A DNA stretch of 64,000 bases, taken from positions 32,001-96,000 of the IMG/VR virus record IMGVR_UViG_3300032234_000388. One strand, 5' to 3'. Each line of letters opens with the position of its first letter. The stretch's first letter is position 1. Below are positions 1,551-62,179 of the stretch, in pieces. The position numbers and the translations under genes are program-made. The notes beneath the pieces were generated by a model. It saw only the letters and a program-made list of their open reading frames with translations. It was not told the DNA's origin and did no database searches. The DNA is from a virus (Duplodnaviria > Caudoviricetes).

Positions 1551-1576
1551 GTGGCTCTAATACAACACCGTTTGGA

Positions 1577-1605
1577 TTGCATTTTGGACAAAGTTGTGTT
1601 ATACT
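1577..1605 (+). promoter_or_regulatory. sigma70-type early promoter
   Basis: TTGCAT-17-TATACT with TGn extended -10. Confidence 0.75.
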
Positions 1606-1632
1606 AACAGTATTAACACATAGGAGCTAACA

Positions 1633-1860
1633 ATGCTAAACACAACACATAAACGAGTTACACTAATAAAAGAAGTTATGTGGAACGAGCAAATGGACGG
1701 CAACGAACTGTTTGATGCTGTACTTAAGGACGAAGCTGGGGAAGTGCGTGTTATGCGTTGCTGTGAGTGCTTTGACATAGACTTTTTTATGCAGCATGAG
1801 TGGGACGACTGCATTACACTAGAGGAATACGTTGTAGAATACATTGACAACTGGAAATAA
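1633..1860 (+). CDS. acidic hypothetical early protein
   Basis: AGGAG SD; 75 aa with no Pro or Ser. Confidence 0.75.
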   Translation: MLNTTHKRVTLIKEVMWNEQMDGNELFDAVLKDEAGEVRVMRCCECFDIDFFMQHEWDDCITLEEYVVEYIDNWK

Positions 1861-1870
1861 GGAGCGGACT

Positions 1871-2161
1871 ATGCTAACAACAACAACACAATTACGTGAA
1901 ATTATTAGAGAAGTGCTAGCGGACGTTGGCGGCGCAGCTTGGACTACTTGGACTGACAGAAGAGCACACGAACGCAAACAACGAACTAACATGCGCTATG
2001 TAGTGTTTAAAATTGACAGAGTTGGCAGAGACGGAGACATAGGCTGTGTTGAGGCACGTGTTAACGTGTTGTTGCGTATACGCGGATTTAGCAACAGAGT
2101 GCGTGTTACTAGCAATTATAAATTTGGCGGCTACTTACGTGCTAATGCACAATTAGGTTGA
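1871..2161 (+). CDS. basic hypothetical early protein
   Basis: AAGGAG SD before ATG 1871; no Pro. Confidence 0.75.
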   Translation: MLTTTTQLREIIREVLADVGGAAWTTWTDRRAHERKQRTNMRYVVFKIDRVGRDGDIGCVEARVNVLLRIRGFSNRVRVTSNYKFGGYLRANAQLG

Positions 2162-2186
2162 CATTTTGGACAATGTGTGCTATAAT
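2158..2186 (+). promoter_or_regulatory. sigma70-type early promoter
   Basis: TTGACA-17-TATAAT, perfect consensus. Confidence 0.9.
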
Positions 2187-2217
2187 GTACACATAAACTA
2201 AGCAACTAGGAGCGAAA

Positions 2218-2457
2218 ATGAATAAAATTAAAATTGTAGACACAGTGGATAACAGGTACTTTGTTAGTGCTACAACTAGCGGAAGTACTAGCGACATTTA
2301 CTTAACAGATGGCACTACAACTGTTAAGCTAGAGGACTGTTTAATTTGGGACAGTGAGCTGTTTGAGGACGCGGAGTTTTACGACGTTGTTAAACACTGT
2401 AAAGCTAACGGCGGAGTAGGAGTAGACAGCTACGAGGGCTGGAGCATTGTTGCATAA
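2218..2457 (+). CDS. hypothetical early protein
   Basis: AGGAG SD; 79 aa with no Pro. Confidence 0.75.
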   Translation: MNKIKIVDTVDNRYFVSATTSGSTSDIYLTDGTTTVKLEDCLIWDSELFEDAEFYDVVKHCKANGGVGVDSYEGWSIVA

Positions 2458-2462
2458 AGCGG

Positions 2463-2491
2463 TTGACAAATTGGACAAAAGGTGTTATACT
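2463..2491 (+). promoter_or_regulatory. sigma70-type early promoter
   Basis: TTGACA-17-TATACT. Confidence 0.85.
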
Positions 2492-2539
2492 ACACATGTA
2501 GTACAAATTAACTAACTTCGGAAAAGAAAGAAAGAACAT

Positions 2540-5430: not shown

Positions 5431-5526
5431 ATGCCTAGACTACTAGTATTATTCATGAGCCTTGTTGCTCTTACCCTTCCTCTAATGGCCCTTGCGGCCC
5501 TAACCATGATTGGTGCGCTACTATGA
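5431..5526 (+). CDS. 31-aa hydrophobic peptide coupled to the antiporter (not in ORF track)
   Basis: MPRLLVLFMSLVALTLPLMALAALTMIGALL; TAAATA 4 nt upstream; ATGA overlap with 5523. Confidence 0.65.
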   Translation: MPRLLVLFMSLVALTLPLMALAALTMIGALL

Positions 5527-6692
5527 TCACAACATTTTTTATTATTGCTGCCATGGTGTTGGTGCCATGGATTGTATGGCGAATTCTACGACTAGAATCT
5601 TGGATGCCCTTGCCCATGTTTCAAATATTCTGCGGCATACTGGTTGGACCTTCAGCATTTGGAGCCTATCATCCGGAACTGTTTACTCAGCTGTTCACTC
5701 AGCCTGTTAGAGCCAGTTTAGATACCATACAGACTCTGGCCATCATTGTGTTTGCATTTATGGCTGGATTGGAATTGAAACCTCGTGAAGTATTGGCCAC
5801 AGAAGGCAAGGGCATTTGGCTCAAGGCCTTTCAAGTTATAGTTCTGCCTATTGCACTAGCTGCGGTGTGTTTCTATGCATTTTTTGATTCAGGAGTGTGG
5901 CATGATCCTCGTGCAGGAGTAGTACAGTTTGCTTGGGCAATGGGTGTGGCCACTTGTATAACTGCACTGCCCATGTTGGTTATAGCTTCAAAGAGCGTGG
6001 GCATCTATGGCACTGATCTATATCGCAGACTCCTAGCCTTGGTGACCTTTGACGATCTTATCCTGTGGTTGACCATAGGTTTGATCATAGCCTTTGGCAA
6101 AACCATGATGCTGGCATCCCTATTCTTTGCAGCCACTGCACTGGTATATTGGCTGTATCCTAGACTTATGGATTGGTTAGGTGAAAGCTCTTGGCCCACA
6201 CTCACAGTGGCTTTGGTCTTTACTTGGGCAGCGTTTAGCCATTGGGCTGGACTACATTGGTTATTGGGCGGATTCCTAGCTGGTATGATCATACCTCGAC
6301 ACACCACAGCTTGGTTGGGCGGCATGGCTGAACATCAGATGTATTGGCTAATGCCTGTGTTCTTTATCTGGACCGGACTCAAAGTACAGTGGTCTAGTCC
6401 GTTGGCTGTGATCATTGGCGCTGCCGTTGGCATGTACCTAATTGCTGTGATCACCAAGTTTGTGGGCGTTTGGCTAGCCTATAGATCCGAGGGCATGCGC
6501 ATGGTCATGTTCAAAACAGCTCTGCTGCAAAACAAAGGTCTGATGGAAATATTCCTAGCCACAGTGTTGCTCAAAGCACAGATTATCACAGGTGACATGT
6601 TTGCTGCAGTTGTGATCATGAGCTTGATCAGCACAGGATCTGCAGTGCCGTTGGCTCGGTTGTTCGACATTAAACAGCACAAAACTGTATAA
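5523..6692 (+). CDS. cation:proton antiporter (CPA2/Kef-type Na+(K+)/H+ exchanger)
   Basis: about 12 TM; GILVGPS, GLEL, ITALP, TFDD, LGGFLAG and KGLME motifs. Confidence 0.85.
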   Translation: MITTFFIIAAMVLVPWIVWRILRLESWMPLPMFQIFCGILVGPSAFGAYHPELFTQLFTQPVRASLDTIQTLAIIVFAFMAGLELKPREVLATEGKGIWLKAFQVIVLPIALAAVCFYAFFDSGVWHDPRAGVVQFAWAMGVATCITALPMLVIASKSVGIYGTDLYRRLLALVTFDDLILWLTIGLIIAFGKTMMLASLFFAATALVYWLYPRLMDWLGESSWPTLTVALVFTWAAFSHWAGLHWLLGGFLAGMIIPRHTTAWLGGMAEHQMYWLMPVFFIWTGLKVQWSSPLAVIIGAAVGMYLIAVITKFVGVWLAYRSEGMRMVMFKTALLQNKGLMEIFLATVLLKAQIITGDMFAAVVIMSLISTGSAVPLARLFDIKQHKTV

Positions 6693-7348: not shown

Positions 7349-7423
7349 GTCGTGTCCCAGGTTGGTATAATATGCGTATTTATTAATAGACCAAAAAAAT
7401 CCTATTTTTGGCTCAGCTTGTCA

Positions 7424-7452
7424 TTGACCGAGTAAATATTTTACTGTATAAT
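7424..7452 (+). promoter_or_regulatory. sigma70 promoter with nested TAAATA late promoter
   Basis: TTGACC-17-TATAAT; TAAATA at 7433-7438. Confidence 0.75.
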
Positions 7453-7482
7453 GTACTAATAATCAACTTCAAGGAGTTCAAA

Positions 7483-8157
7483 ATGTTTGCAACAAGTACA
7501 ATCCGATCTGCGTCAGAAATCAATTCTGCCATGGGTCGTGTTTATGGTCACATGAGTGTGGCTGTGGTAATCAGCATGCTGGCCAGTCTGCTGGTAGCCA
7601 GTTCACCTGCGCTAATGGCTGTGTTGTTTGGCACTGGGCTTAAATGGGTCGTAATGTTTGCTCCATTGATTGCCATATTGGGTATGAGCTTGGGATATGA
7701 GCGTATGAGCAAGAACACCATACAGATTCTACTGTACGGGTTCGCAGTACTGATGGGATTGAGTTTTGCCACTATCTTTGTGGTCTATCAAATTGGTTCA
7801 ATAGTCACTGCATTTATGGGTGCTGCTGTGCTGTTTGGCACACTGAGCTTTTATGGTTATTTTACCAAGAAAGATCTAAGTTCGTGGGGAACATTCCTGT
7901 TGGTAGGTTTAATTGCTCTGATCATTACCAGCATTGTTAATATCTTTATTGGCAGTTCTGTATTGGCCATGACGCTGTCAGCAATTGCTATTATTATATT
8001 CTTGGGTTTGACTGCCTATGACACACAGCGTATTCGCGAATTGGTCACGTATGAAAATGACGGCAAAGCAGAAGTCATGGGCGCACTGAGCCTATACTTG
8101 AACTTTATCAACATCTTCCTCAGTTTGCTACAGTTGTTTGGTAATAGAAACGACTAA
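7483..8157 (+). CDS. Bax inhibitor-1/YccA family membrane protein
   Basis: 7 TM; TKKDLS, TAYDTQRI and ALSLYLNFINIFLSLLQLFG motifs; AAGGAG SD before ATG 7483. Confidence 0.9.
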   Translation: MFATSTIRSASEINSAMGRVYGHMSVAVVISMLASLLVASSPALMAVLFGTGLKWVVMFAPLIAILGMSLGYERMSKNTIQILLYGFAVLMGLSFATIFVVYQIGSIVTAFMGAAVLFGTLSFYGYFTKKDLSSWGTFLLVGLIALIITSIVNIFIGSSVLAMTLSAIAIIIFLGLTAYDTQRIRELVTYENDGKAEVMGALSLYLNFINIFLSLLQLFGNRND

Positions 8158-10541: not shown

Positions 10542-12011
10542 CTAATTAAACACAGGTAAACCATGTAGTTGACTCCAGGTCCTAGCATCGGCATGATCAT
10601 TGATCATCGGTTGCCCTTTGATATTCAAACTGGTATTCAACAGCATAGGACAGCCCGTAGCTTCGTACCATAACTCTAATAATTCTCTAAATTGCGGATT
10701 ATCGGATTTACTGACCGTTTGTACACGGCTGGTTCCGTCGGTATGTACGATGGCCGAATAAGACTCAGATTCCAAACAAGGCGCAATAAATTGCATGTAA
10801 GCTGTTGATTTTGTTGGCATTTTAAAGTACTGATTTGCAAATTCTTCTAATATTGCAGGGGCAAAGGGTCTAAACTGCTCTCGGTGCTTTATATTGTTAA
10901 TTGCGACCTTTATTTCCGGACCACGCGGATCTGCTATCAAACTGCGGTTTCCTAAGGCTCTAGGACCAAACTCTGCAGGACCGCGAGCAAGTCCGCACAT
11001 TTTGTGTTCGAGCAGATGAGCAACAATTTCTTTATTGCTAGCCTTATAGCCCATATCATATCCTAGATACGGGCCTTGCCAATCTATATGCGTTTTCTTA
11101 TGAGCAAGTACTGCACCAATTGCACTGCCGCTATCTCCGGGTGCCGGCATTATCCAAACACGATCGAAGTATTTGTAGGCAATAGGGTTAGCGGCACAGT
11201 TTAGAGCACATCCTCCCATAAACACTAGATTTCTACTTGAGCTGGTTCTAACGGCCTGCTGTAAGACTCGCTCAAATGCCATCTCGTATACAGCTTGTGT
11301 AGCTGCTGCTATATCGTACAAATCTTGCTGTGTTGTTAATTCAGGACGCCACCAATTACATCCTCGATGTAAATTTTGTTTAATCCTGTAAACATGTTCA
11401 TAATCATCATTAGGAAAACTAACAAAATCATTTAATAGGTCTCTGATAAATCTATTAGGGTTTCCTAGTGCTGCCATGCCCATTAAGATATATTCTTCTT
11501 CGTTGGGCTTTAAGCCGCAGCGTTGTGTCATTGCACTATAAAACAATCCTAAACTGTTTGGATATTCTAGAATGTATCGTTTGTGTAGGTTAGTGCCAAC
11601 AGCATCCCACTGTGTTAGACATTCAAATTCGCCAATGGCATCGATTACTAGTACACAGGCATCTTCAAACCCGCTAGTGTAATAACCTGCGGCTGCGTGT
11701 GTTTGGTGATGTCCAAAAGTTTTAATCGGTGTTCGAATATTAAACTTTCTAAGATAATCTTTTACATTATTATTCTGCCATCCTTGCCCGGCAGTTAACT
11801 GCCTTAGAGTTTTTAACCAAGGACGTTCGTACCAGCAAACTAATTCAGGTTTACCAAATGTTCGAGCATGTTCTATTAATTCATAACTGAGATCTGGATC
11901 GTTCTTAAGTTTACTAAACCGTTCTGATTCGCTGGCAAATACTAATTTGTCATTGTCAAACACGGCCAAGGCAGCATTATGGCTGGCTGCAGATATTCCC
12001 CAGGTAATCAT
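10542..12011 (-). CDS. NodU/CmcH/TobZ family carbamoyltransferase
   Basis: HHQTHAA, DAIGE, GGCALN, EFGPRALGNRS, REQFRPFAP, LLNTSLN. Confidence 0.95.
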   Translation of the reverse strand: MITWGISAASHNAALAVFDNDKLVFASESERFSKLKNDPDLSYELIEHARTFGKPELVCWYERPWLKTLRQLTAGQGWQNNNVKDYLRKFNIRTPIKTFGHHQTHAAAGYYTSGFEDACVLVIDAIGEFECLTQWDAVGTNLHKRYILEYPNSLGLFYSAMTQRCGLKPNEEEYILMGMAALGNPNRFIRDLLNDFVSFPNDDYEHVYRIKQNLHRGCNWWRPELTTQQDLYDIAAATQAVYEMAFERVLQQAVRTSSSRNLVFMGGCALNCAANPIAYKYFDRVWIMPAPGDSGSAIGAVLAHKKTHIDWQGPYLGYDMGYKASNKEIVAHLLEHKMCGLARGPAEFGPRALGNRSLIADPRGPEIKVAINNIKHREQFRPFAPAILEEFANQYFKMPTKSTAYMQFIAPCLESESYSAIVHTDGTSRVQTVSKSDNPQFRELLELWYEATGCPMLLNTSLNIKGQPMINDHADARTWSQLHGLPVFN

Positions 12012-39606: not shown

Positions 39607-41193
39607 TCAAAGGCCCATACTAACAAAGATAGGCATTGGCATCTGCTCTTCCGAGATTTTTTCAGTCATTTTGTCGTAAATGTGCGGATCCCAGTCTGCA
39701 AGCACATTGGCCATACGTATAATCAATAGGGTAGCACTGACTAAGTCATCGTGCTCACCGGTTTTTGCTCCAAATCCAACACCGTGTGCTACAAAGGTTT
39801 TTAACTCCGAAATCAACGGTTTAGATTTTAATATCATCTTGTTTGTTTCTAACATGTTTTTAAGTTGACTGCAACAGGTAATTTTTGAACGATGAGTAGT
39901 ATTAAATCCTTTACGGAATTTACGTACATGACCCTTACGCATAGGTTCACTTAGAAATAAGCCATGAAAGTTTTCTTCACCTAGATCGCTAATAACAATC
40001 AATGCTGCTTCACCTAGAGTATTGTTTTCTACCGAATAATAAATTTGTGGAGTCCCACCTTTTTCGACTCCCCTGTCGTTAATATACCTTAGTATTTCTC
40101 GCATGTGTTTGACTTGAGCCTGTATTGGTGTTAGATTGTGATGCCATTCTGCTACCTGTACCATAGAGGGCATTTCAAATACTTGTATGGCTCCATAGTC
40201 TCCGCCTGTGCCTAGACTAGGATCAAGAGCCACTAGATATGTTGCTTTGGGATCTATGTCTTTATACCAACGAGTTTGACCCATGGTCATTGTTGGATCA
40301 ACTCCTTTCATTTCTGCTAGACGTACAGCATTAACTAGAGTTTCATCAAAGATCAAGAATTCGCAATCAAATTCTCTACGGAAACGCTCTTCACCAATCT
40401 TGGCACGTTCTGTTTGTGCCCATGCTTCGTCACGATCTGGGTGTTCATTCCAATGTGCAAAAAAACTATGAAATCCGTTGGTGCCTAACTTTTGTTCATT
40501 ACCGTACTCGTCAAATCTTTTGTTAGCTTCAGTCCAGATTAACGCAAACTGATCTTCGTCCGAGTTTGGAGTTGATGTAATAATACACTTACCACCTGTT
40601 GACAATGTTGGTGATAACGCAGTCCAAAACTCTTTGGCTTTCTCTGGCGGTTGCACAAACGCAAACTCATCACAATAGATCAATGAAAGAGATTTACCGC
40701 GACCAGTATTTTCAGTTGTAGTAGTTGCCTGTATACGTGATCCGTTATCATACTCGATTGAATTTCTATTATAGGTATAAACGCCCGCTCGGATAAAGTC
40801 AGGCAAGTTCTCATATCCAAATCGATAACGATTCATGATGTCCTGCGCACCTTCATACTTGTGAGCAGCAATTAGTACCTGTGCCTCAGGAATAAACATT
40901 GTGTACCATAACAGATAGCCAGTAGCACAGGTAGTTTTACCCATTTGGCGAGGCAACATAGCAATACACTGTTTGTTAGAATGATAAGATTCAATTAGCC
41001 GTTCTTGAAATTCATACGGTTCGAATGGAATAGAACCGCGTGTTGGATGCTGAATCTTTAAAAAGTTTTTACAAAAATACAAAGGACCAGTAATTGGATC
41101 CATGCAGGCTTCGAGATGCTTGACTTCCTCTAGAGTATATTTCTGAGGAGCATGAGCTTTTTTAATTAAATTACCGTCGAGACTTTTTCCCAT
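39607..41193 (-). CDS. gp17: terminase large subunit (T4 gp17-like)
   Basis: PRQMGKT, IYCDEFAF, TSTPN, LDPS, VENN, HDDLV. Confidence 0.95.
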   Translation of the reverse strand: MGKSLDGNLIKKAHAPQKYTLEEVKHLEACMDPITGPLYFCKNFLKIQHPTRGSIPFEPYEFQERLIESYHSNKQCIAMLPRQMGKTTCATGYLLWYTMFIPEAQVLIAAHKYEGAQDIMNRYRFGYENLPDFIRAGVYTYNRNSIEYDNGSRIQATTTTENTGRGKSLSLIYCDEFAFVQPPEKAKEFWTALSPTLSTGGKCIITSTPNSDEDQFALIWTEANKRFDEYGNEQKLGTNGFHSFFAHWNEHPDRDEAWAQTERAKIGEERFRREFDCEFLIFDETLVNAVRLAEMKGVDPTMTMGQTRWYKDIDPKATYLVALDPSLGTGGDYGAIQVFEMPSMVQVAEWHHNLTPIQAQVKHMREILRYINDRGVEKGGTPQIYYSVENNTLGEAALIVISDLGEENFHGLFLSEPMRKGHVRKFRKGFNTTHRSKITCCSQLKNMLETNKMILKSKPLISELKTFVAHGVGFGAKTGEHDDLVSATLLIIRMANVLADWDPHIYDKMTEKISEEQMPMPIFVSMGL

Positions 41194-55078: not shown

Positions 55079-55340
55079 AATACACAAATCAGATAGATTT
55101 AAACAAGACTATGAGCGATATTCATCTGCAATATCTCAATTACCCGACAGTGATTTTAAAGATCAAATGAATAACACTCTAACAAAGTTAATAAATGAAA
55201 TTAAAAAATTAGACAGTCTTCATTTAGAAATGGTATACACTAGACAGTTGCCGTCTATGGGAACCGACATCAAATCAACTATTACCGAGTTGAGACGTGA
55301 TCTAGAGACCAATCTCAAACGGTATCTTACTCCCAATTAA
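55068..55340 (+). CDS. hypothetical helical protein
   Basis: GGAG SD; 90 aa. Confidence 0.6.
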   Translation: MLNEIHKSDRFKQDYERYSSAISQLPDSDFKDQMNNTLTKLINEIKKLDSLHLEMVYTRQLPSMGTDIKSTITELRRDLETNLKRYLTPN

Positions 55341-58300
55341 GCCTGCGCTTCGCCCCATCTTAAAATAACGCTGGTATTTGTAGGACTTCCACTAACCTTA
55401 TACACGTTAATGGCCAGTACGTCTGGCCCGTTTGGAAATGCTCCTCTACCACCAATTGCTGTAGCTGTTAATTCTTTCAATGATTCTAAACTTAACTCTC
55501 CCGATTCTCCCGGGTTGGCAATAAACGAAAATACTTGTTCACCAGGTAATGCATATAAGGCACCAAACTGCCAAGTAATTGTCGAAGAAGCATTAATAGT
55601 TGTATTTGCTGATTGAGAGAATGTCACACGATAAATTGTGGTTGCTCCGTAGGTTCTAGTTTCTACAGTGTTTACCGCAGTTCCAGCTGGAAAGCTAGTT
55701 ACTGAGGTAGCAATTCGAGTACCGACCACAGCTCCAGAAGATAACCAACTAGCTGAAGTAAAGAATAAGAAGTTTCTGTTTACATATGAAGCTGCTGTAC
55801 CGGCTGCGGTTACTGTGACTGTTATATTATTTCCAGATCCTGTGGCTGATGATGCATTAGCAGGAGCACTCATTATAACTCGAGTATAGTTTGTTCCGCC
55901 GATATTAACAAAGCTCGGAATAATACTAGTAATAGTCTGTCCAGCATTTATAAATGTTGTAAGAGTATAAGTTAGTCCAGTAGGAGTTCCAGCAGTAGTA
56001 GTGACTCCGCCGCCGCCTTCTGTAGTACTCAAAGTAAATGTTGTGCTTCCGTTAGTTGCTACAATAAAATATTGTGTACCAGAAGAATATCCACTTATGC
56101 TACCAGTACCACCAAAGGTTCCAGTAATTGTGACACGTTGACCAACTGACAGGGTAGTTGATGTACAACTAAATTGTCCGGCCGTTCCAGTTATTGCTAC
56201 CGAGGCCAATGTGACACTATTTCCTGGAGCAATACTCAATACATCACTAACAACTATTCCCGATCCTGCAATGGATGAGTCAGTTACAAGAAAATCTGAT
56301 CTTGAAGTAGAAAATGCTCTACCATATGTAGCTGTGACAGCACTGGTGCTGGTGACTGAAATGTTATTTCCTGCGCCGGCTGTGCTAGTAGTAGAACCGT
56401 TGGCACTCATGATTACTCTAGCATATGCTGTTCCTGCCACAGTAACAAAATTTGGAGTAACACTAGAAATTGTTTGGCCGCCAGTTAAAAACGTTATCGC
56501 AGTTAATACGTCGGTTGCAGCAATTGTTGATCCTGCAAATTGTGTCTGAGTAATTAAGAAATCATTCCTACTGGCGCTAATTGCTGTGTTGTAAGTTTGC
56601 GATGCGCGAATAGTTATAGTCACTGCAACGTTTTGTGCACCATTACTAGCTGCCAAGTTGCTATTCGCGCTGGCATTTCCACTCATAATTATTCTAGCAT
56701 AACTTACGCCAGCAATAGTAATAAAGTTTGGAGTAACACTAGAAATTGTTTGGCCGCCAACTAAGAATGTAGTTGCTGATAAGCCATCAGTATTTCCAAT
56801 GGTCGATGTCAATGCTGCAAATGAACTTTGAGTAATTAAAAAATCATTCCTAGATGCTGATAATGCTCTTCCGTATGTTCCGTTGACCTGCAGTGTGACG
56901 TTCTGGCCAGCGCCAGGAGCACTGCTAATTGATGGTAAATTGTTCAGTACAATTCTAGTAAAGGTACCTCCTAGATATCCTCTAGTGATAGATTGTATAG
57001 TGCTATTAACTCCTGTTCCAGTAATTGTATCATTAACTGCCAGCGGGGTAGCTAAACTATCAAATTGCGTATTTGATATCAACACATCACTTCTAGTGGT
57101 ATCAACAGCTCTAACATAACTGTTATTACCGTAAGGCTGACCGTTGGCCTGTCCTAGTGCTGTAATAGTTTGACCAAAACTTGCAGCAGTCACCGGAGTG
57201 GTTGTTGTGTTAAATGAAATTGCTGTTAATGCATTAGTGACTGGAGTAAAACTTGGTGCTGTAAGAGTAGTTGTAAATGCCCCTTGAACTGTAGCTGTAG
57301 TTTGTCTAACATCTCCACTCCATGTCACAGAACCACCAGCTGCAATCTGTGCAAAGCTAGGCTGTCCACCTGCTGCTTGAGAACTTAAACCAGTCCAAGT
57401 AATGTTAGCAGGATTAATAGGATAATTAATTGGATTTAATACCCCTTCAACAACAATTGCACCGCCGCCAGCTACTGTATCCGAGCTAATTGCAATGCTT
57501 GATAATAACAATTGCGCACGATTTAATAATTCTCGATCGCCTAAGTCGCCAATCACTGCGTTTGACACCGACGGTGCTAATCGAATTAAAAATGCAGTAT
57601 TTTTTTCTAAGGTAGCCGATATCGCTGTAGCTGCGTAGTTGAAAATGTATCCTCGATCGCTGTCAAACTGACCGTCAATCATAAATGCTGAACCCCAGTG
57701 ACTGATGATCGGAGTAATAGTATTAGAAATTAAAACTACGCCTGTTCTTTCAGTGTGTAAGGTTGCAACACCTGCGCTAAATGTTCTTGTAGAACCGGAA
57801 ACAAATTGTGTTAAATTTGCTGCTCGAGTACAACCAGTAAGGGCAGAACCGTTATTTCCTGTGAAAGAAATTAATTCGTTATCTATATATACTGTTCCTG
57901 AATTTGGAAACCAGTACAAATCCTCAGCACTCATAGGTATTGTTGTTTGATTACTAGTCATTGCAGCATTTAATCTGCCTCTGGCTCCTTCGTTGATCAC
58001 TTCATAACGAACTGGCTGATTACCAGTTCTCATATATGCTTCTGAATTTACGTTCGAATTACGGAATCGATGTACAAAAAGATAATTTCCATCTGATCCT
58101 CGAAGCATAAAATCAATAAATCCTGCACCGTACCAAGTATGTTGAATACCAATCATTTGCATCTTAGTCACATCAAGATTATAACCGCTTGGACCTGCGC
58201 CATTACAGGTATCTAAATTCCAATCTTCTTGTGGAACAATTAGATCTTGTACTTTGGTAATTTTAACACTTGATACATTAGTCACTCCTCGATAATCAGG

Positions 58301-61300
58301 AGACACTGTCATTAAAGTATCATTAGTTAGTTGAGTAACTACGTGTGTCATTCCCCTAATTACAATTCGATCACCTGTTGCCAACTGTTGTGTAAATCTA
58401 GTATTAGCTCCGGTTACTATATTTGAATTAACGTTAATACTAATAGTTCCTGCTATTTGGAATGTACTTGATCTACGAACAACAGCCATACGTTGGCCAT
58501 CGTATTGCCAGAACATACCGTTTTGATCGTCAAATATACCAGAACGAACTGTTGATCCGTGCCAGTTTTTTATAGACATTTGACATGGACTACCAAGAAC
58601 CGGGCTAGTTGATCCTAATCTTTGTGTTGCTATAAATGACAATTGTCTTTCGTTGCCTATACTTGACACAGTATATGTGCCGTTATATCCAGAGGTAGCA
58701 ACTCCGCTGATTACTATAACTCCTCCTACTTGACATCCGTGATCGGTGTCATCACAAATTATAGTAATAGTGCTGCCAACTGCAGTTCCGTTTGATATAA
58801 TAGTGCGAATATCATAGCTTGGTGCAAATAAAGCACCGGTATTATACATAACACCCTTACCTGATTGATAACGAATATACTTTTTACTCATACGAATTGC
58901 GGTAGCACCGTGTGCTGGACCAGCAGTGCCTAGTTGTACTCCGCCGTCGAACGGTCTATGTATAAAAAATGAGTCTGGTCGGCCAAATAAATTGCCTACT
59001 AATGTATTATCAACAAGGCCAGCACCTCGAGCTGTATATCTTAAAGTTGTTGGGGTTGGAACTTGTTCTACAAAAAATGGACCGGCTGCTAGTTGGGCAT
59101 TAGTACCAGAGCTTGTAATTGATGTCGTGATAGTGTTTCCAGGAATAAATCCATGAGCAGATGCAAAGGTAACTTCGATGGTAGCAATAGCAGAAAAATT
59201 GATTCCAGTGTTGTCGCTGAGTATTTGTGCAGTAGTAGGTTCGCTAATAGTAATAGCACTGATAAAGTTTCTTGAGGGTGCAGTAACTGCAGTTCCAGAA
59301 ATCGATACCGTTTGAATTACTCCACCTGCAGTAATTGTTGCTACTTGAATAGTTGCTTGTGTAAATAATGACTGAACTTCAAACGTTCCGCCAGCAGCGC
59401 CATCTTGTACAACAGTTACAACATCAGTTGCAGCATAACCAGAACCTGAATTTACAATAGTCACTGAAGCTATGCCACCGCTGCCGTCGTCTACAATGTC
59501 AACAATACAGCCAGTGCCGCCTCCTGAACTTGTTGTGACTAATCCAGCTGCTGTAGAATAGCCTGTCCCTGCTACAATGTTAGTTGAGGCAGCAATTCTT
59601 CCAGCTGCTCCAATAGTAATTGTTTCCCCAATTGCATATCCCTGTCCAGGTGAATTTATTGCAACGGTATCTATAATGCCGCTGGTTTGTGTAATATCAA
59701 CTGTAAGGCCAGTGCCGCTGCCTGAGCTGGTGGTGATCACTGCAGACGAATTACTATATCCTGTGCCGCCGGCTAATGATGCAGCATTTAATGTTGCTAC
59801 ACTATCAACAGGTGTGGCCGAAGTAACTGTAATTGTTGCGTTGTTTGCAGGGGCGGCTCCGCCTAACGCAGTTCCAGCAATTAATATAGTATCATTAGCT
59901 ACATATCCAGACCCTGGAGTAGATGTAGTAACAGCATATGTTGGTGTTCGAGATACACTAAACACTGCTCCAACACCGTTACCTGATGTTGATCCTGATA
60001 ATCCTGCAAATGTTTGCGTTGTTCCTCGTATATTAGTTGTAATGCCGCCGCTAAGTGTAACAACATTACCTGTAACGTCAGTAACTCGAACCGCTACACC
60101 GTCACCTCGATCAAATATCAATCCCGGTCCAATACCTGTTGTGCTAGTAACTGTAAGAGTATTGTCACCGGTGGTGGCATTTGACAATAATGTAGTAGAA
60201 GCTGCAGTGCCGCCTGCGCCTGTTACCGCTGTAATTTGAGACCCGCCAACCACTCCTGTGCCGGTTAACGGTGCTCCTATCGGAGGTGGTGCTGAACTAA
60301 ATCCTATTGAAGTACTACCAATAGGAGTGATTAAACTTGTAGTAATAGTTCCAGAACTACCGTTTGATAAAACATTAAATGATGGTAGTCCGACTGCAGA
60401 GCCGGTATAATAACCGCCCTTTCTTAATTGTGTATATGTACTAGCTAGAATTTCTCCGTCTGTTGTACCCACTTTTGCTTTGGCAAAAAATGTAAATGTT
60501 GATGTTGTTGGCACAGTAGATACTAAGAAACTGCCTTCACCACGACTAAATCCTTGTACAGAATTACTCAATGCTTTAATTGTAATAGGATCTCCAGGAA
60601 GTAATCCGTGATTTCCAATAGTTGTTACTGTTATCTGACTAGCTCCAATGCCGGTAGGTGCGCTGGCATTTGTAACTACGTTAACAACAGGAATTTCTGT
60701 TCCCGGAATTTCGTAGATTGAAGGATAATTGCGCATCAATCCAATTGCTTGCCACTTGGTCGGTTGTAGTCCATACTCAAAGTCAGCGTCAAGCATACTT
60801 TGCGGAATGCCAACCCGTTGACGTTCCATAGCATCAGTAGCTATGGAATTCATTCTAACAATTTGTTCTTTACCTTCAACAAAAATTTGTATGTTGTCGG
60901 TGACCATCATGTTACTTGTGTCAATGTCAAAAGTAACTGTGGTGATTTTATCTACACCGTACAGTGCTCCTGGAAAACTTGTATCAAGAGTTTCAGTATA
61001 TGTAATTTCAGCAGCTAGTCTATCATCGGCAAAATTATACATGATGATATTTCTTGAGGCATTTGTGATCAATAACAAATCTTTGATCTTAAAATACCCT
61101 GGCATTTTAATATAGCCGCGATTTGAAATTTTTGTTGGTACGGCAGCCAGTCCGTTTTCGATTACCTCGAGGATAATATTACTAAGTTCTTTAACTCTTG
61201 TAGCGGCAAATACTTCAACGTTGGCTTCAAAATCGATTACTTGACTAACAAGTATTTGTCTATTAGAAAAAACAGTATTTGTTAAAATAAAGTTTTCTAT

Positions 61301-62179
61301 TAAATCTCGAATGAAGGTATGAGCAACTATTTCTGGTTGGCGATCACCGTCAACCTGTGCTACCCCATTTTCCCAATATTTTTCAGCATTAAAAATTGTT
61401 TGACGATTACCACCGCGTTTAAAATCGCTGATATAACCTTCTAATATATAACTTATATCACGTCTACATTTTTCTACATTATAAGTGTAGTTCACATAAG
61501 GAGAAATATTATTAGCTGAATTAAATTGTATAAAGGCTATTGCCTCTTCTTGAATAAATCGTTTATTAGCTTCAATCAGTGTTACTGCATTCAATAGCAG
61601 CGTATTATTTTGACTGCTAGGGGCAACCGGGTCGGGCAATGCGCTCAGGCCAGTGTCAATGGTATCGATTAAAAAGTCAGCTAATGTTGTAATTTCAGCA
61701 ATACTTTGTAGACCGCCTGCTGTTGGCAGTATAACTTGAGATACATCTTCAAGATTTAATGGGGTGGCAAGAGTGTTAGTTAAAATATTTGTTATAATTA
61801 ACGATTTTAAATAGGTATGGGTGTCAACTTCAACATCAGTAGACACCACTTGAACAACTCCGTCAATATAATAATTTGAGGCAACCGCATACGTTAATGA
61901 ATTTCCTCCATAGGTCAAATCATAAATGAATGCGTCTAACACATATCCGGTATCTCTTCTACATTTTGTTTCTCTAGTGGGTCCATATACATAATTAAAA
62001 TAAGGACTTAGTGCGTTGTCGGCATTGAGAGCAATTTGATTTTTTATATACTGACTCATTTCTTCTATTATAAAATTTTTATTTGCTGTCAGTAATGCAA
62101 CTGCATCGGTGTATTGTCCGAATGCTGGAGGCACTACTCCTGGAAAAAATTTATAATTTTGAATTTGCTTCTTTGCCAT
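55337..62179 (-). CDS. 2280-aa virion structural protein (tail fibre or baseplate appendage)
   Basis: Thr/Gly/Ser-rich beta repeats, two N-terminal KCRRD repeats, C-terminal ~95-aa repeats. Confidence 0.75.
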   Translation of the reverse strand: MAKKQIQNYKFFPGVVPPAFGQYTDAVALLTANKNFIIEEMSQYIKNQIALNADNALSPYFNYVYGPTRETKCRRDTGYVLDAFIYDLTYGGNSLTYAVASNYYIDGVVQVVSTDVEVDTHTYLKSLIITNILTNTLATPLNLEDVSQVILPTAGGLQSIAEITTLADFLIDTIDTGLSALPDPVAPSSQNNTLLLNAVTLIEANKRFIQEEAIAFIQFNSANNISPYVNYTYNVEKCRRDISYILEGYISDFKRGGNRQTIFNAEKYWENGVAQVDGDRQPEIVAHTFIRDLIENFILTNTVFSNRQILVSQVIDFEANVEVFAATRVKELSNIILEVIENGLAAVPTKISNRGYIKMPGYFKIKDLLLITNASRNIIMYNFADDRLAAEITYTETLDTSFPGALYGVDKITTVTFDIDTSNMMVTDNIQIFVEGKEQIVRMNSIATDAMERQRVGIPQSMLDADFEYGLQPTKWQAIGLMRNYPSIYEIPGTEIPVVNVVTNASAPTGIGASQITVTTIGNHGLLPGDPITIKALSNSVQGFSRGEGSFLVSTVPTTSTFTFFAKAKVGTTDGEILASTYTQLRKGGYYTGSAVGLPSFNVLSNGSSGTITTSLITPIGSTSIGFSSAPPPIGAPLTGTGVVGGSQITAVTGAGGTAASTTLLSNATTGDNTLTVTSTTGIGPGLIFDRGDGVAVRVTDVTGNVVTLSGGITTNIRGTTQTFAGLSGSTSGNGVGAVFSVSRTPTYAVTTSTPGSGYVANDTILIAGTALGGAAPANNATITVTSATPVDSVATLNAASLAGGTGYSNSSAVITTSSGSGTGLTVDITQTSGIIDTVAINSPGQGYAIGETITIGAAGRIAASTNIVAGTGYSTAAGLVTTSSGGGTGCIVDIVDDGSGGIASVTIVNSGSGYAATDVVTVVQDGAAGGTFEVQSLFTQATIQVATITAGGVIQTVSISGTAVTAPSRNFISAITISEPTTAQILSDNTGINFSAIATIEVTFASAHGFIPGNTITTSITSSGTNAQLAAGPFFVEQVPTPTTLRYTARGAGLVDNTLVGNLFGRPDSFFIHRPFDGGVQLGTAGPAHGATAIRMSKKYIRYQSGKGVMYNTGALFAPSYDIRTIISNGTAVGSTITIICDDTDHGCQVGGVIVISGVATSGYNGTYTVSSIGNERQLSFIATQRLGSTSPVLGSPCQMSIKNWHGSTVRSGIFDDQNGMFWQYDGQRMAVVRRSSTFQIAGTISINVNSNIVTGANTRFTQQLATGDRIVIRGMTHVVTQLTNDTLMTVSPDYRGVTNVSSVKITKVQDLIVPQEDWNLDTCNGAGPSGYNLDVTKMQMIGIQHTWYGAGFIDFMLRGSDGNYLFVHRFRNSNVNSEAYMRTGNQPVRYEVINEGARGRLNAAMTSNQTTIPMSAEDLYWFPNSGTVYIDNELISFTGNNGSALTGCTRAANLTQFVSGSTRTFSAGVATLHTERTGVVLISNTITPIISHWGSAFMIDGQFDSDRGYIFNYAATAISATLEKNTAFLIRLAPSVSNAVIGDLGDRELLNRAQLLLSSIAISSDTVAGGGAIVVEGVLNPINYPINPANITWTGLSSQAAGGQPSFAQIAAGGSVTWSGDVRQTTATVQGAFTTTLTAPSFTPVTNALTAISFNTTTTPVTAASFGQTITALGQANGQPYGNNSYVRAVDTTRSDVLISNTQFDSLATPLAVNDTITGTGVNSTIQSITRGYLGGTFTRIVLNNLPSISSAPGAGQNVTLQVNGTYGRALSASRNDFLITQSSFAALTSTIGNTDGLSATTFLVGGQTISSVTPNFITIAGVSYARIIMSGNASANSNLAASNGAQNVAVTITIRASQTYNTAISASRNDFLITQTQFAGSTIAATDVLTAITFLTGGQTISSVTPNFVTVAGTAYARVIMSANGSTTSTAGAGNNISVTSTSAVTATYGRAFSTSRSDFLVTDSSIAGSGIVVSDVLSIAPGNSVTLASVAITGTAGQFSCTSTTLSVGQRVTITGTFGGTGSISGYSSGTQYFIVATNGSTTFTLSTTEGGGGVTTTAGTPTGLTYTLTTFINAGQTITSIIPSFVNIGGTNYTRVIMSAPANASSATGSGNNITVTVTAAGTAASYVNRNFLFFTSASWLSSGAVVGTRIATSVTSFPAGTAVNTVETRTYGATTIYRVTFSQSANTTINASSTITWQFGALYALPGEQVFSFIANPGESGELSLESLKELTATAIGGRGAFPNGPDVLAINVYKVSGSPTNTSVILRWGEAQA

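Follow-up and report, generated by a model that had tools for sequence, protein, structure and literature searches.

The window analysed here, a stretch of 64,000 nt, belongs to the record of an uncultured lake giant phage that is 198,723 nt long (~199 kb) and 56% complete. Toward its left end lies a run of small genes, and all of the features of this region are on the + strand. We use "YC" for TC or CC on this strand, which is the message strand, and "island" for a YC-free tract and its genes. Upstream of the island in the window is a gene for a 100-aa protein. Its stop codon is followed by a small hairpin (1486-1502), read directly from the sequence and lying outside the YC-free tract, whose loop is complementary to GGAGCGAA, the motif found in the leaders of the island genes; a hairpin of this kind also precedes the islands in the related loci L001, L022 and L033. 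The intrinsic terminator of the upstream gene (1521-1551) consists of a stem of 8 pairs, 6 of them G-C (1521-1544), and a T-run, and bounds the island on the left. The final YCs ahead of the void are at 1556 and 1568.

The YC-free tract (1570-2517) begins just before the first island promoter (1577-1605; TTGCAT, 17-nt spacer, TATACT, with a TG upstream of the -10), which drives genes 1 and 2. The left edge therefore sits at a terminator/promoter junction, as had been proposed in a preliminary description of this DNA. Gene 1 (1633-1860; family A) encodes an acidic protein of 75 aa with a CCEC...H...C motif, and gene 2 (1871-2161; family B), which starts 11 nt past the stop of gene 1, encodes a basic, Arg-rich protein of 96 aa. 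An internal promoter (2158-2186; TTGACA, 17-nt spacer, TATAAT, TG; a 12/12 match), itself free of YC, is followed by gene 3 (2218-2457; family C), encoding an acidic protein of 79 aa. The promoter of gene 4 (2463-2491; an 11/12 match, with TG) is still within the YC-free tract. The right border (2518-2764) is reached in the 5' leader of gene 4, where the first TC falls. Gene 4 itself (2540-2764), encoding a membrane-like protein of 74 aa, has an ordinary YC density, and there are 40 YC in the 400 nt downstream of its promoter.

Between 1570 and 2517 the + strand has 948 nt and not one YC. Our count agrees with the gap first described, from the CC at 1568-1569 to the TC at 2518-2519, and puts its length at 950 nt. 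The tract would be expected to hold 91 YC by genome frequency and 63 by its own base composition, and the minimum across 20,000 mononucleotide shuffles was 43. More than 20 YC had been reported in each ~300-bp flank; we counted 34 (1270-1569) and 31 (2518-2817). In the whole record the runner-up gap measured 184 nt (+ strand), gaps on the - strand reached 135 nt at most, and a comparable void was found for no other dinucleotide. Since the + strand of the tract abounds in GA (71) and GG (49), the bias is strand-specific, again as claimed.

The void has marked consequences for coding. Because the message strand lacks TC and CC, the proteins encoded at 1633-1860, 1871-2161 and 2218-2457 contain no proline, and their serines are specified by AGC or AGT in 9 of 9 cases, which bears out the earlier reading of these proteins. 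The codons TTC, ATC, GTC, CTC, ACC and GCC are all absent from the three ORFs. C after a purine, on the other hand, is enriched, and GAC is used in 19 of 22 cases.

Relatives of the three genes occur in dozens of further lake samples. We examined 30 metagenome loci with homologues of gene 2 or gene 3 (47-95% protein identity), and the ban on YC was kept in all 30. Gene 3 homologues (47-67% identity, 30 loci) had 0 YC each, within voids of 290-1,423 nt. Gene 2 homologues with 95% identity in L001/L002 and 89% in L003 were YC-free, and so were gene 1 homologues in L001, L003, L018, L024 and L033, as well as a 36-aa C-terminal fragment of the gene 1 family at the contig end of L008. The pooled non-redundant islands comprised 14,865 nt with 0 YC, and their flanks had 80 per kb. 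Nothing else was missing from the islands at the di- or trinucleotide level, and neither U content nor TT was lowered. Proline was absent from all 44 distinct island CDS (3,640 codons). A sequencing artefact was rejected as the source of the void, since more than 30 assemblies, produced in many studies, show the same ban.

The preliminary description would have taken absence of the void from functional homologues, together with a lack of effect of recoding, as a sign of a one-off scar. Such absence was found only in distant family C homologues (37-39% identity) in other phage lineages, which have 6.5-10 YC per 100 nt. Normal YC in these homologues indicates that the ban is lineage-specific rather than a scar. 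In the first 50 kb of PA5oct, its early region, we found only mildly YC-poor stretches and no void. Within the record itself, ~19 further early promoters of the sigma-70 consensus type head genes whose YC is ordinary. The ban is thus restricted to one lineage and to a subset of genes. It is also old, persisting among homologues down to ~50% protein identity.

The islands are built of exchangeable parts. At least six small-protein families (A-F among them) occur in promoter-headed cassettes; promoter repeats flank the small ORFs, and families A-F are shuffled, present or absent, at these repeats. The contig joints were 1849>2158, 2184>2456 and 1501>2156. In L001 and L003 unrelated genes take the place of gene 3 and the ban still holds. 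This arrangement resembles the mobile early cassettes of T4-type phages, in which promoter-early stem-loop modules reportedly shuffle small early genes. In both, every small early gene has a strong sigma-70 promoter of its own, nearly identical from one gene to the next; genes change order and may be present or absent, and the joints lie at promoter repeats. In contrast to the islands, no dinucleotide ban is described for the T4-type cassettes, and most island cassettes have no stem-loop between genes.

The island proteins gave no family in searches of Pfam, PHROGs or the ESM Atlas, and gene 1 in particular had no match in these three collections. DNA searches, near and distant, and tblastn with the three island proteins and the upstream 100-aa protein returned nothing among 50,697 phage records, and neither gene 2 nor the family C alignment found a match in scans of IMG/VR. 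Structure models of families C (pLDDT 95) and D (pLDDT 90) matched nothing above noise in the PDB (Foldseek, VIA-align): the best match of family D was the anti-Thoeris sponge Lockin (Z 4.3) and that of family C an anti-Cas9 protein (Z 3.6), both tied with unrelated chains. A single metatranscriptome held part of the stretch, as four short contigs, none inside genes 1-3. The genes had been described as early ones with putative takeover or anti-defence roles, and our analysis supports this view of them as early, promoter-headed small genes of that presumed type.

How is the void maintained? A C-to-T hypermutation scar on the coding strand (YC to YT), one-off or ongoing, would be a mutational account, as full deamination at TC and CC would likewise leave no YC. 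It shares with APOBEC-type hypermutation the same two dinucleotides, TC and CC, and the strand asymmetry. However, simulated conversion of YC to YT in 124 neighbouring genes gave 31% T and 137 TT per kb, whereas the islands have 23% T and 75 TT per kb, with AC raised to 98 per kb; within 1570-2517, too, TT and CT are not raised. Conversion would also make 1.68 stops per 100 codons, so that the three window genes would have stayed open with P = 0.015 and all 44 island CDS with P of ~3e-27. Serine was not lost but retained through AGY (4.2%, AGY only, across the 44 island CDS vs 4.9% in neighbouring genes). Moreover, the ban holds across sequences differing at 9-12% of bases and across the unrelated genes that replace gene 3. 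With no TT/CT excess, intact frames, codon compensation and long conservation, the islands are unlike the products of APOBEC-type hypermutation, and the dinucleotide counts, codon usage and simulated conversion refute a scar; we regard it as next to impossible.

Synonymous choice in the islands follows the ban closely. TTC was used for 0 of 115 Phe codons and ATC for 0 of 193 Ile codons, and the bases preceding codons that start with C were 386 purines and not one pyrimidine (in neighbouring genes 47% of these bases are pyrimidines). Where they are allowed, C-ending codons are favoured (GAC 85% in islands vs 56%). Because homologues at 47-95% identity conserve the ban, and because of this synonymous compensation and the intact frames, we conclude, in agreement with the preliminary description, that the tract is under selection: it is kept YC-free at the nucleotide level and is not the result of chance or of a single event. 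Several sources of such selection were considered and rejected. A tRNA- or codon-level cause does not fit, since codon junctions and non-coding RNA also obey the ban. Avoidance of UV photoproducts is contradicted by abundant TT and by a template strand full of dipyrimidines, and avoidance of frequent nickases, PAMs or restriction sites would not be strand-specific in the observed sense. A need for unstructured mRNA was rejected as the driver; island RNA is less stable than GC-matched neighbours by only ~1.3 kcal/mol per 120 nt.

The borders of the islands show where the ban applies. Of 9 first promoters, 6 have YC between the -35 and -10 elements; of 39 internal or terminal ones, 3 do (Fisher p = 5e-4). 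The first promoter of the window (1577-1605), for example, is conserved in L001/L002 and has a TC in its spacer there. In L014 a CC lies 3-4 nt past the -10 element, upstream of the likely RNA start and inside the open-complex bubble. Leaders, intergenic RNA and internal promoters are also YC-free, and the void extends to the next gene's leader or to a terminator. The ban therefore starts at the first transcription start and applies to the transcribed part: tolerance of YC in first-promoter spacers and its rarity in internal promoters make it a property of the transcript. At most loci the island transcripts continue without a terminator into YC-containing genes.

These borders bear on the explanations that place the ban in DNA. 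A YC-specific agent might attack the single-stranded non-template strand in the transcription bubbles or R-loops of very strongly transcribed genes; the agents proposed are an ADP-ribosyltransferase, a deaminase (APOBEC- or SsdA-like) or a dC-specific endonuclease like T4 endonuclease IV, whose preference is for TC. In favour of this are the strand concerned and the way in which the voids follow transcription units, and ssDNA cytosine deaminases classically act at TC and CC. Yet neighbouring genes with the same consensus promoters have normal YC, and so does gene 4, which is read through from the island; the CC of L014, although within the bubble, comes before the likely RNA start; and an agent acting on DNA would endanger the remaining genome during replication. 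We consider this explanation improbable. Another suggestion, made in the preliminary description, was a context-specific modification of phage DNA that impedes the host RNA polymerase, at the G of GA/GG (7-deazaguanine type) or the C of YC, so that the template of these genes must stay unmodified. It had been prompted in part by a putative carbamoyltransferase gene at 10.5 kb; the gene is real (10542-12011, minus strand) and could be counted in favour, but nothing links it to the tract. Neither TGT/DpdA nor QueC was found in the 56%-complete record, with both controls positive, and the + strand of the island is full of GA and GG, which its promoters contain as well. The ~19 other host-type early promoters head genes without the ban, and a duplex-level modification would not explain why the ban lapses in untranscribed first-promoter spacers. 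This suggestion is not borne out, and we think it highly improbable. The other candidate put forward earlier, a nuclease acting on RNA or ssDNA, a deaminase or an ADP-ribosyltransferase, is viable, with the island borders pointing to the transcript as its target.

To our knowledge, Rho is the sole factor known to read 5'-YC-3' on RNA; it was absent from the earlier list of candidates. A message without UC or CC would offer Rho no loading site. In a Rho-bearing host, which this explanation supposes, such immediate-early genes could be read to the end before ribosomes follow the polymerase or before Rho is neutralised, and YC-containing early genes would act as delayed early genes, as in T4. The primary-site (PBS) cleft of Rho binds one 5'-YC-3', up to six per hexamer (PMC5314796), a specificity that matches the missing word exactly. 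It is already known that avoidance of Rho shapes the composition of coding strands and that this poses a barrier to phage and foreign genes (PMC13323073, Nat Microbiol 2026). The position of the ban on the transcript, leaders and intergenic RNA included, is consistent with this, as is the retention or enrichment of purine-preceded C, which the Rho clefts do not bind. In the record as a whole, purines make up 54.4% of the coding strand of genes, with 7.4 YC per 100 nt in sense vs 11.3 in antisense. By terminase, the closest cultured relatives are phages of Proteobacteria, bacteria that have Rho. As to other possible pointers to the host, psbA was not found in the record, the 2,279-aa protein at 55337-62176 has no phycobilisome domain, no close genomic relative was found for the Na/H exchanger of the record, and relatives of Bax1-I occur in MAGs of Betaproteobacteria and Bacteroidota, different phyla and partly on short contigs.

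On the other hand, loading of Rho is cooperative and needs several spaced YC over 60-90 nt (PMC5314796). A lone YC in a YC-free kilobase should then be close to neutral, yet the count is exactly zero in 44 of 189 CDS, and every proline has been given up in these zero-YC CDS. Although Rho occurs nearly everywhere, neither the early region of PA5oct nor the distant family C homologues show the ban. The unlowered U content and TT also speak against Rho. The known Rho-avoidance bias (PMC13323073) resembles the islands in its strand-specific depletion of UC and CC on the message, which shapes codon choice, but it is graded, genome-wide and directed at pyrimidines. The islands are absolute, confined to TC and CC, 0.3-1.4 kb in length and limited to a few early genes, with proline deleted. 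No description of such a Rho-evading ban was found in our literature searches. Taken together, Rho evasion is a serious candidate, if less likely than not, and it stands only slightly behind the reading that follows.

The reading that we slightly prefer, while giving it less than an even chance, is that the islands answer to a YC-specific enzyme that acts on RNA site by site. YC counts per CDS are bimodal: 44 CDS have 0, while 2, 3, 2 and 6 CDS have 1, 2, 3 and 4, and those with residual YC mostly hold single conserved Pro codons. This distribution points to a cost at each site, because a reader needing several sites would leave the last YCs neutral. One possibility that weakens this argument is that tiny per-site effects in very large phage populations could purge synonymous YC. 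Another point against an enzyme is that the island transcripts run on into YC genes, so downstream cuts would leave the 3' ends of the island mRNAs unprotected. We know of no enzyme with YC specificity on RNA. The Pfam families TGT, QueC, CDA deaminase, RegB, ADPrib_exo_Tox, DarT and EndoU had no match in the 56%-complete record, and the control genomes were silent for four of them.

In the enzyme scenario the islands would be immediate-early mRNAs kept without 5'-YC-3'. An agent in the freshly infected cell would act on single-stranded RNA at each C that follows a pyrimidine, either cleaving the RNA or modifying the base (by ADP-ribosylation, deamination or similar), and every single YC site would be costly. 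Ordinary mRNAs, with 7-10 YC per 100 nt, would be hit many times and YC-free messages spared, which would allow the small island proteins to be made while the activity is on. These products may include a factor that later switches the activity off, or serve other takeover or anti-defence functions. We infer that the activity could come from the phage, as host shut-off, or from the host, as defence.

There are precedents for parts of this scheme. Messages that lack a recognised word survive MazF-type mRNA interferases while others are cut (reviewed in PMC5408214), and the islands fit such motif avoidance: one short word is wholly absent, on the message strand only, from coding and non-coding RNA alike. 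The interferase motifs are 3-7 nt, whereas the island word has two letters and costs one amino acid. The CmdTAC system is closer, in that an enzyme of phage-host conflict reads a dinucleotide in ssRNA and blocks translation: CmdT ADP-ribosylates A in the GA of single-stranded RNA in phage defence (PMC11618068). A per-site agent of this kind would make a message without its dinucleotide immune. CmdTAC differs in its word: GA is common in the island, with 71 occurrences in 948 nt. Neither a CmdT-like gene nor a YC-specific counterpart was found in the 56%-complete record. ADP-ribosylation of cytidine does exist (PMC12945103). The ACA-less messages known to us in the case of MazF are engineered constructs or statistical trends, not conserved multi-gene islands, and we know of no report of phage genes avoiding GA in response to CmdTAC.

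The loss of 2 of 16 dinucleotides and 1 of 20 amino acids indicates a strong and specific force in the first minutes of infection. If that force is Rho, the islands would be the cleanest natural demonstration of Rho as a front-line barrier to phages, and they would provide a recipe for termination-proof transcripts. Should it be an enzyme, lake giant phages may, as we tentatively suggest, face one so far undescribed, which cleaves or modifies RNA at every pyrimidine-preceded C, whether as a phage shut-off weapon, injected or made at once, or as a host defence, and the YC-free islands would be an immune first-response set that includes the antidote. Such an enzyme would represent a new class of weapon against RNA that carries its own bioinformatic marker, and both the enzyme class and its counter-measures would be findable from sequence alone. 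With either reading, the ban makes it possible to pick out the immediate-early or anti-defence genes of uncultured giant phages by raw sequence.

Strand-specific dinucleotide counts over the whole 198,723-nt IMG/VR record (CheckV completeness 56%) confirmed that the tract of about 950 bp at window positions 1570-2517 is unique. Between the CC at 1568-1569 and the TC at 2518-2519, the + strand contains no TC and no CC (together, YC), while the two 300-nt flanks contain 34 and 31. The expected number is 91 from the genome-wide frequency or 63 from the tract's own base composition, and the minimum among 20,000 shuffles of the tract was 43. The next longest YC gap in the record is 184 nt on the same strand and 135 nt on the opposite strand, and no comparable gap was found anywhere in the record for any other dinucleotide. 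GA (71) and GG (49) are present at normal levels on the + strand. The void is therefore strictly strand-specific, as the preliminary description had stated.

The tract starts just 3' of an intrinsic terminator (stem 1521-1544 plus a T-run) and contains a first promoter (1577-1605), the co-transcribed gene 1 (1633-1860, 75 aa) and gene 2 (1871-2161, 96 aa), a promoter with a perfect TTGACA-17-TATAAT and a TG (2158-2186) that precedes gene 3 (2218-2457, 79 aa), and a further promoter (2463-2491), all on the + strand. The left edge thus lies at a terminator/promoter junction, and codon counts agreed with the earlier claim that the three proteins lack proline and encode serine only by AGY (AGC or AGT). 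The codons TTC, ATC, GTC, CTC, ACC, and GCC are also missing from these genes. The first TC is in the leader of gene 4 (2540-2764, + strand), whose YC content is ordinary. About 19 other consensus sigma-70 promoters occur in the early region (genome 15-35 kb) and their genes have 20-49 YC per 400 nt, so the ban is not general to early genes.

A CCEC...H...W..C pattern resembling a small metal-binding site is conserved in gene 1 and its homologues. Upstream of the tract, 3' of the stop of a 100-aa gene, is a small CCG/CGG-closed hairpin (1486-1502) whose loop, ATTCGCTCC, shows complementarity to GGAGCGAA, the ribosome-binding leader in front of the island genes; hairpins of this type are also found immediately 5' of the islands in three metagenome loci (L001, L022, and L033). 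As a YC-free message is unable to carry such an anti-SD sequence itself, the hairpin might regulate island translation in trans or in cis.

Homologues of gene 2 occur on the metagenome contigs L001/L002 (95% identity) and L003 (89%). Although 9-12% of their aligned bases depart from the window, none of these differences introduces a YC into genes 1 and 2. In place of gene 3, L001/L002 have an unrelated 55-aa gene with a single CC, at its lone proline codon, and L003 has a YC-normal gene. The family of gene 3 (family C) is wider than that of gene 2: homologues with 47-67% identity and 41-49% GC were free of YC in 30 of 30 loci (6 from exact look-up and 24 from a metagenome scan). Their voids extend for 290 to 1,423 nt, and two short contigs contain no YC over their full lengths of 1,178 and 772 nt. 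The pooled non-redundant islands amount to 14,865 nt with no YC, compared with 80 per kb in the flanks, and no other di- or trinucleotide is missing from them. The void is thus kept by homologues at 47-95% identity but not by family C members at 37-39%, which have 10 YC per 100 nt on a 55%-GC phage contig and 6.5 on a 37%-GC contig; one member at 44% identity contains just one YC. The ban is therefore a property of a phage lineage or setting, not of the protein. In the 55%-GC locus L041, a distant family C homologue (2501-2830) lies in an early-gene array in which all genes have 8-16 YC per 100 nt, a natural YC-normal counterpart that is a possible experimental control.

At least six small-protein families recur in the islands in shuffled order, five of them (A, which includes gene 1, and C to F) across distant loci and family B (gene 2) in close relatives only. 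No island protein contains proline; most are acidic and family B is basic. Most of the families have their own near-consensus promoter and a AGGAGCGAA-type ribosome-binding site. Lake-sample contigs bridge single cassettes or the whole island, with joints at promoter repeats (window 1849>2158, 2184>2456, 2188>2463, 1501>2156, and 1501>3011), like the mobile early cassettes of T4-type phages; recombination between near-identical promoters adds and removes early cassettes. None of the island families matched Pfam or PHROGs, genes 1 and 2 had no usable match in Atlas, and the confident models of families C and D matched no solved fold above noise. Parts of gene 3 (within approximately residues 10-76) match segments that recur 4-17 times in very long proteins from other metagenomic organisms (P0006, of 3,527 aa, P0008, P0013-P0016, and P0019); its product may have arisen from a repeat module or may imitate one.

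The large terminase (39607-41190, minus strand) shares 54% identity with those of PA5oct-like Pseudomonas jumbo phages, 52% with that of Sinorhizobium phage Phosso, and approximately 43% with those of Rak2-like phages. The phage also encodes a T4-type sheath, gp15, a DnaB-like helicase, and a RecA-like protein. Sequencing runs that contain small parts of the stretch are labelled freshwater or lake metagenomes. No psbA was found in the 56%-complete record, and Pfam detected neither a phycobilisome domain nor any other in the 2,279-aa protein at 55337-62176 (minus strand). A Bax1-I/YccA-type membrane protein (7408-8157; Pfam E 8e-55) and a Na+/H+ exchanger (5523-6692) are encoded. The former gene is 60-64% identical to genes of MAGs labelled Betaproteobacteria, Crocinitomicaceae, and Haliscomenobacter, a scatter across phyla that indicates no consistent host. 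Across 159 long ORFs of the record, coding strands are 54.4% purine and have 7.4 YC per 100 nt in sense versus 11.3 in antisense, a weak, genome-wide version of the island asymmetry.

We compared 44 distinct island coding sequences (3,640 codons) with 145 neighboring ones. Proline accounts for 0% of island codons and 3.0% of neighboring codons, and serine for 4.2% (all AGY) and 4.9% (58% AGY). TTC is used for 0 of 115 phenylalanines (about half in neighbors), ATC for 0 of 193 isoleucines (43%), and GAC for 85% of aspartates (56%). All 386 island codons that start with C follow a purine and none a pyrimidine, compared with 47% after a pyrimidine in neighbors. These figures are evidence of selection at the nucleotide level. 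The number of YCs per gene is bimodal: 44 genes have none while 2, 3, 2, and 6 genes have 1, 2, 3, and 4, respectively. Genes adjoining islands (for example L016:469-702, L006:1074-1346, and L032:4054-4317) form a halo with 1-4 YCs (up to 7 in some), mostly at single conserved prolines, and one halo family has YCs only at a conserved Phe-Pro (FPVQ). The ban thus yields only where proline seems indispensable.

One explanation for the void is a scar of YC-to-YT deamination, which is expected to raise T, TT, and CT and to halve C. TT and CT in the tract are no commoner than in the genome as a whole, and C is enriched after purines (AC observed/expected 1.93; codon counts GAC 19/22, AAC 9/12, TAC 7/9, and GGC 10/17). 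Simulated full conversion of 124 neighboring genes gave 31% T and 137 TT per kb, compared with 23% and 75 per kb in real islands, and introduced stops at a rate of 1.68 per 100 codons; at that rate, the probability that the frames stay open is 0.015 for the three genes and approximately 3e-27 for the 44 island genes. The T and TT levels, the enriched purine-C, and the intact frames rule out such a scar. YC occurs between -35 and -10 in 6 of 9 first promoters and in 3 of 39 internal or terminal promoters (Fisher p = 5e-4); the latter are transcribed by read-through, and their three YC-bearing members mark breaks or ends of voids. At their right border, voids stop within the leader or the opening codons of the following gene, or else at a terminator. 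This promoter contrast and the right borders indicate that the ban is a feature of the RNA, or at least of the transcribed stretch, which argues against duplex-level explanations and makes the context-specific base modification of the preliminary description very improbable. Protection of the non-template DNA strand is unlikely too, as neighbors with the same promoters are unprotected.

Two readings fit these data. We tentatively favor an agent that would act on single-stranded RNA at each YC, by cleavage or base modification. Such an agent would account for why YC is entirely absent, why proline was given up, why halo genes keep only the prolines they cannot do without, and why only some lineages and some early genes obey the ban. 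We know of no YC-specific enzyme, and no candidate was found in the 56%-complete record. CmdT is a defence enzyme that modifies mRNA at a specific dinucleotide, GA (PMC11618068). The other reading, avoidance of the termination factor Rho, is only slightly less probable. Each of the six primary clefts of Rho binds one YC (PMC5314796), Rho avoidance is already known to shape coding strands and hinder foreign genes (PMC13323073), and the sense strands of the record's genes are rich in purines. However, Rho does not load unless several spaced YCs are present, which should make the last few almost neutral; Rho is almost universal while the ban is not, given the early region of phage PA5oct (its first 50 kb), which has no void, and the distant family C homologues; and neither U nor TT is depleted in islands.

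Our literature searches turned up no account of early phage genes stripped of YC. Two known concepts come nearest: the coding-strand code imposed by Rho, and mRNAs that evade sequence-specific RNA enzymes by lacking their motif. Unlike either, the island ban is absolute, two-letter, and island-restricted, and it deletes an amino acid. If an agent acting at each YC in RNA is responsible, the YC-free genes would be the subset of early genes that needs to be expressed while that agent is active.
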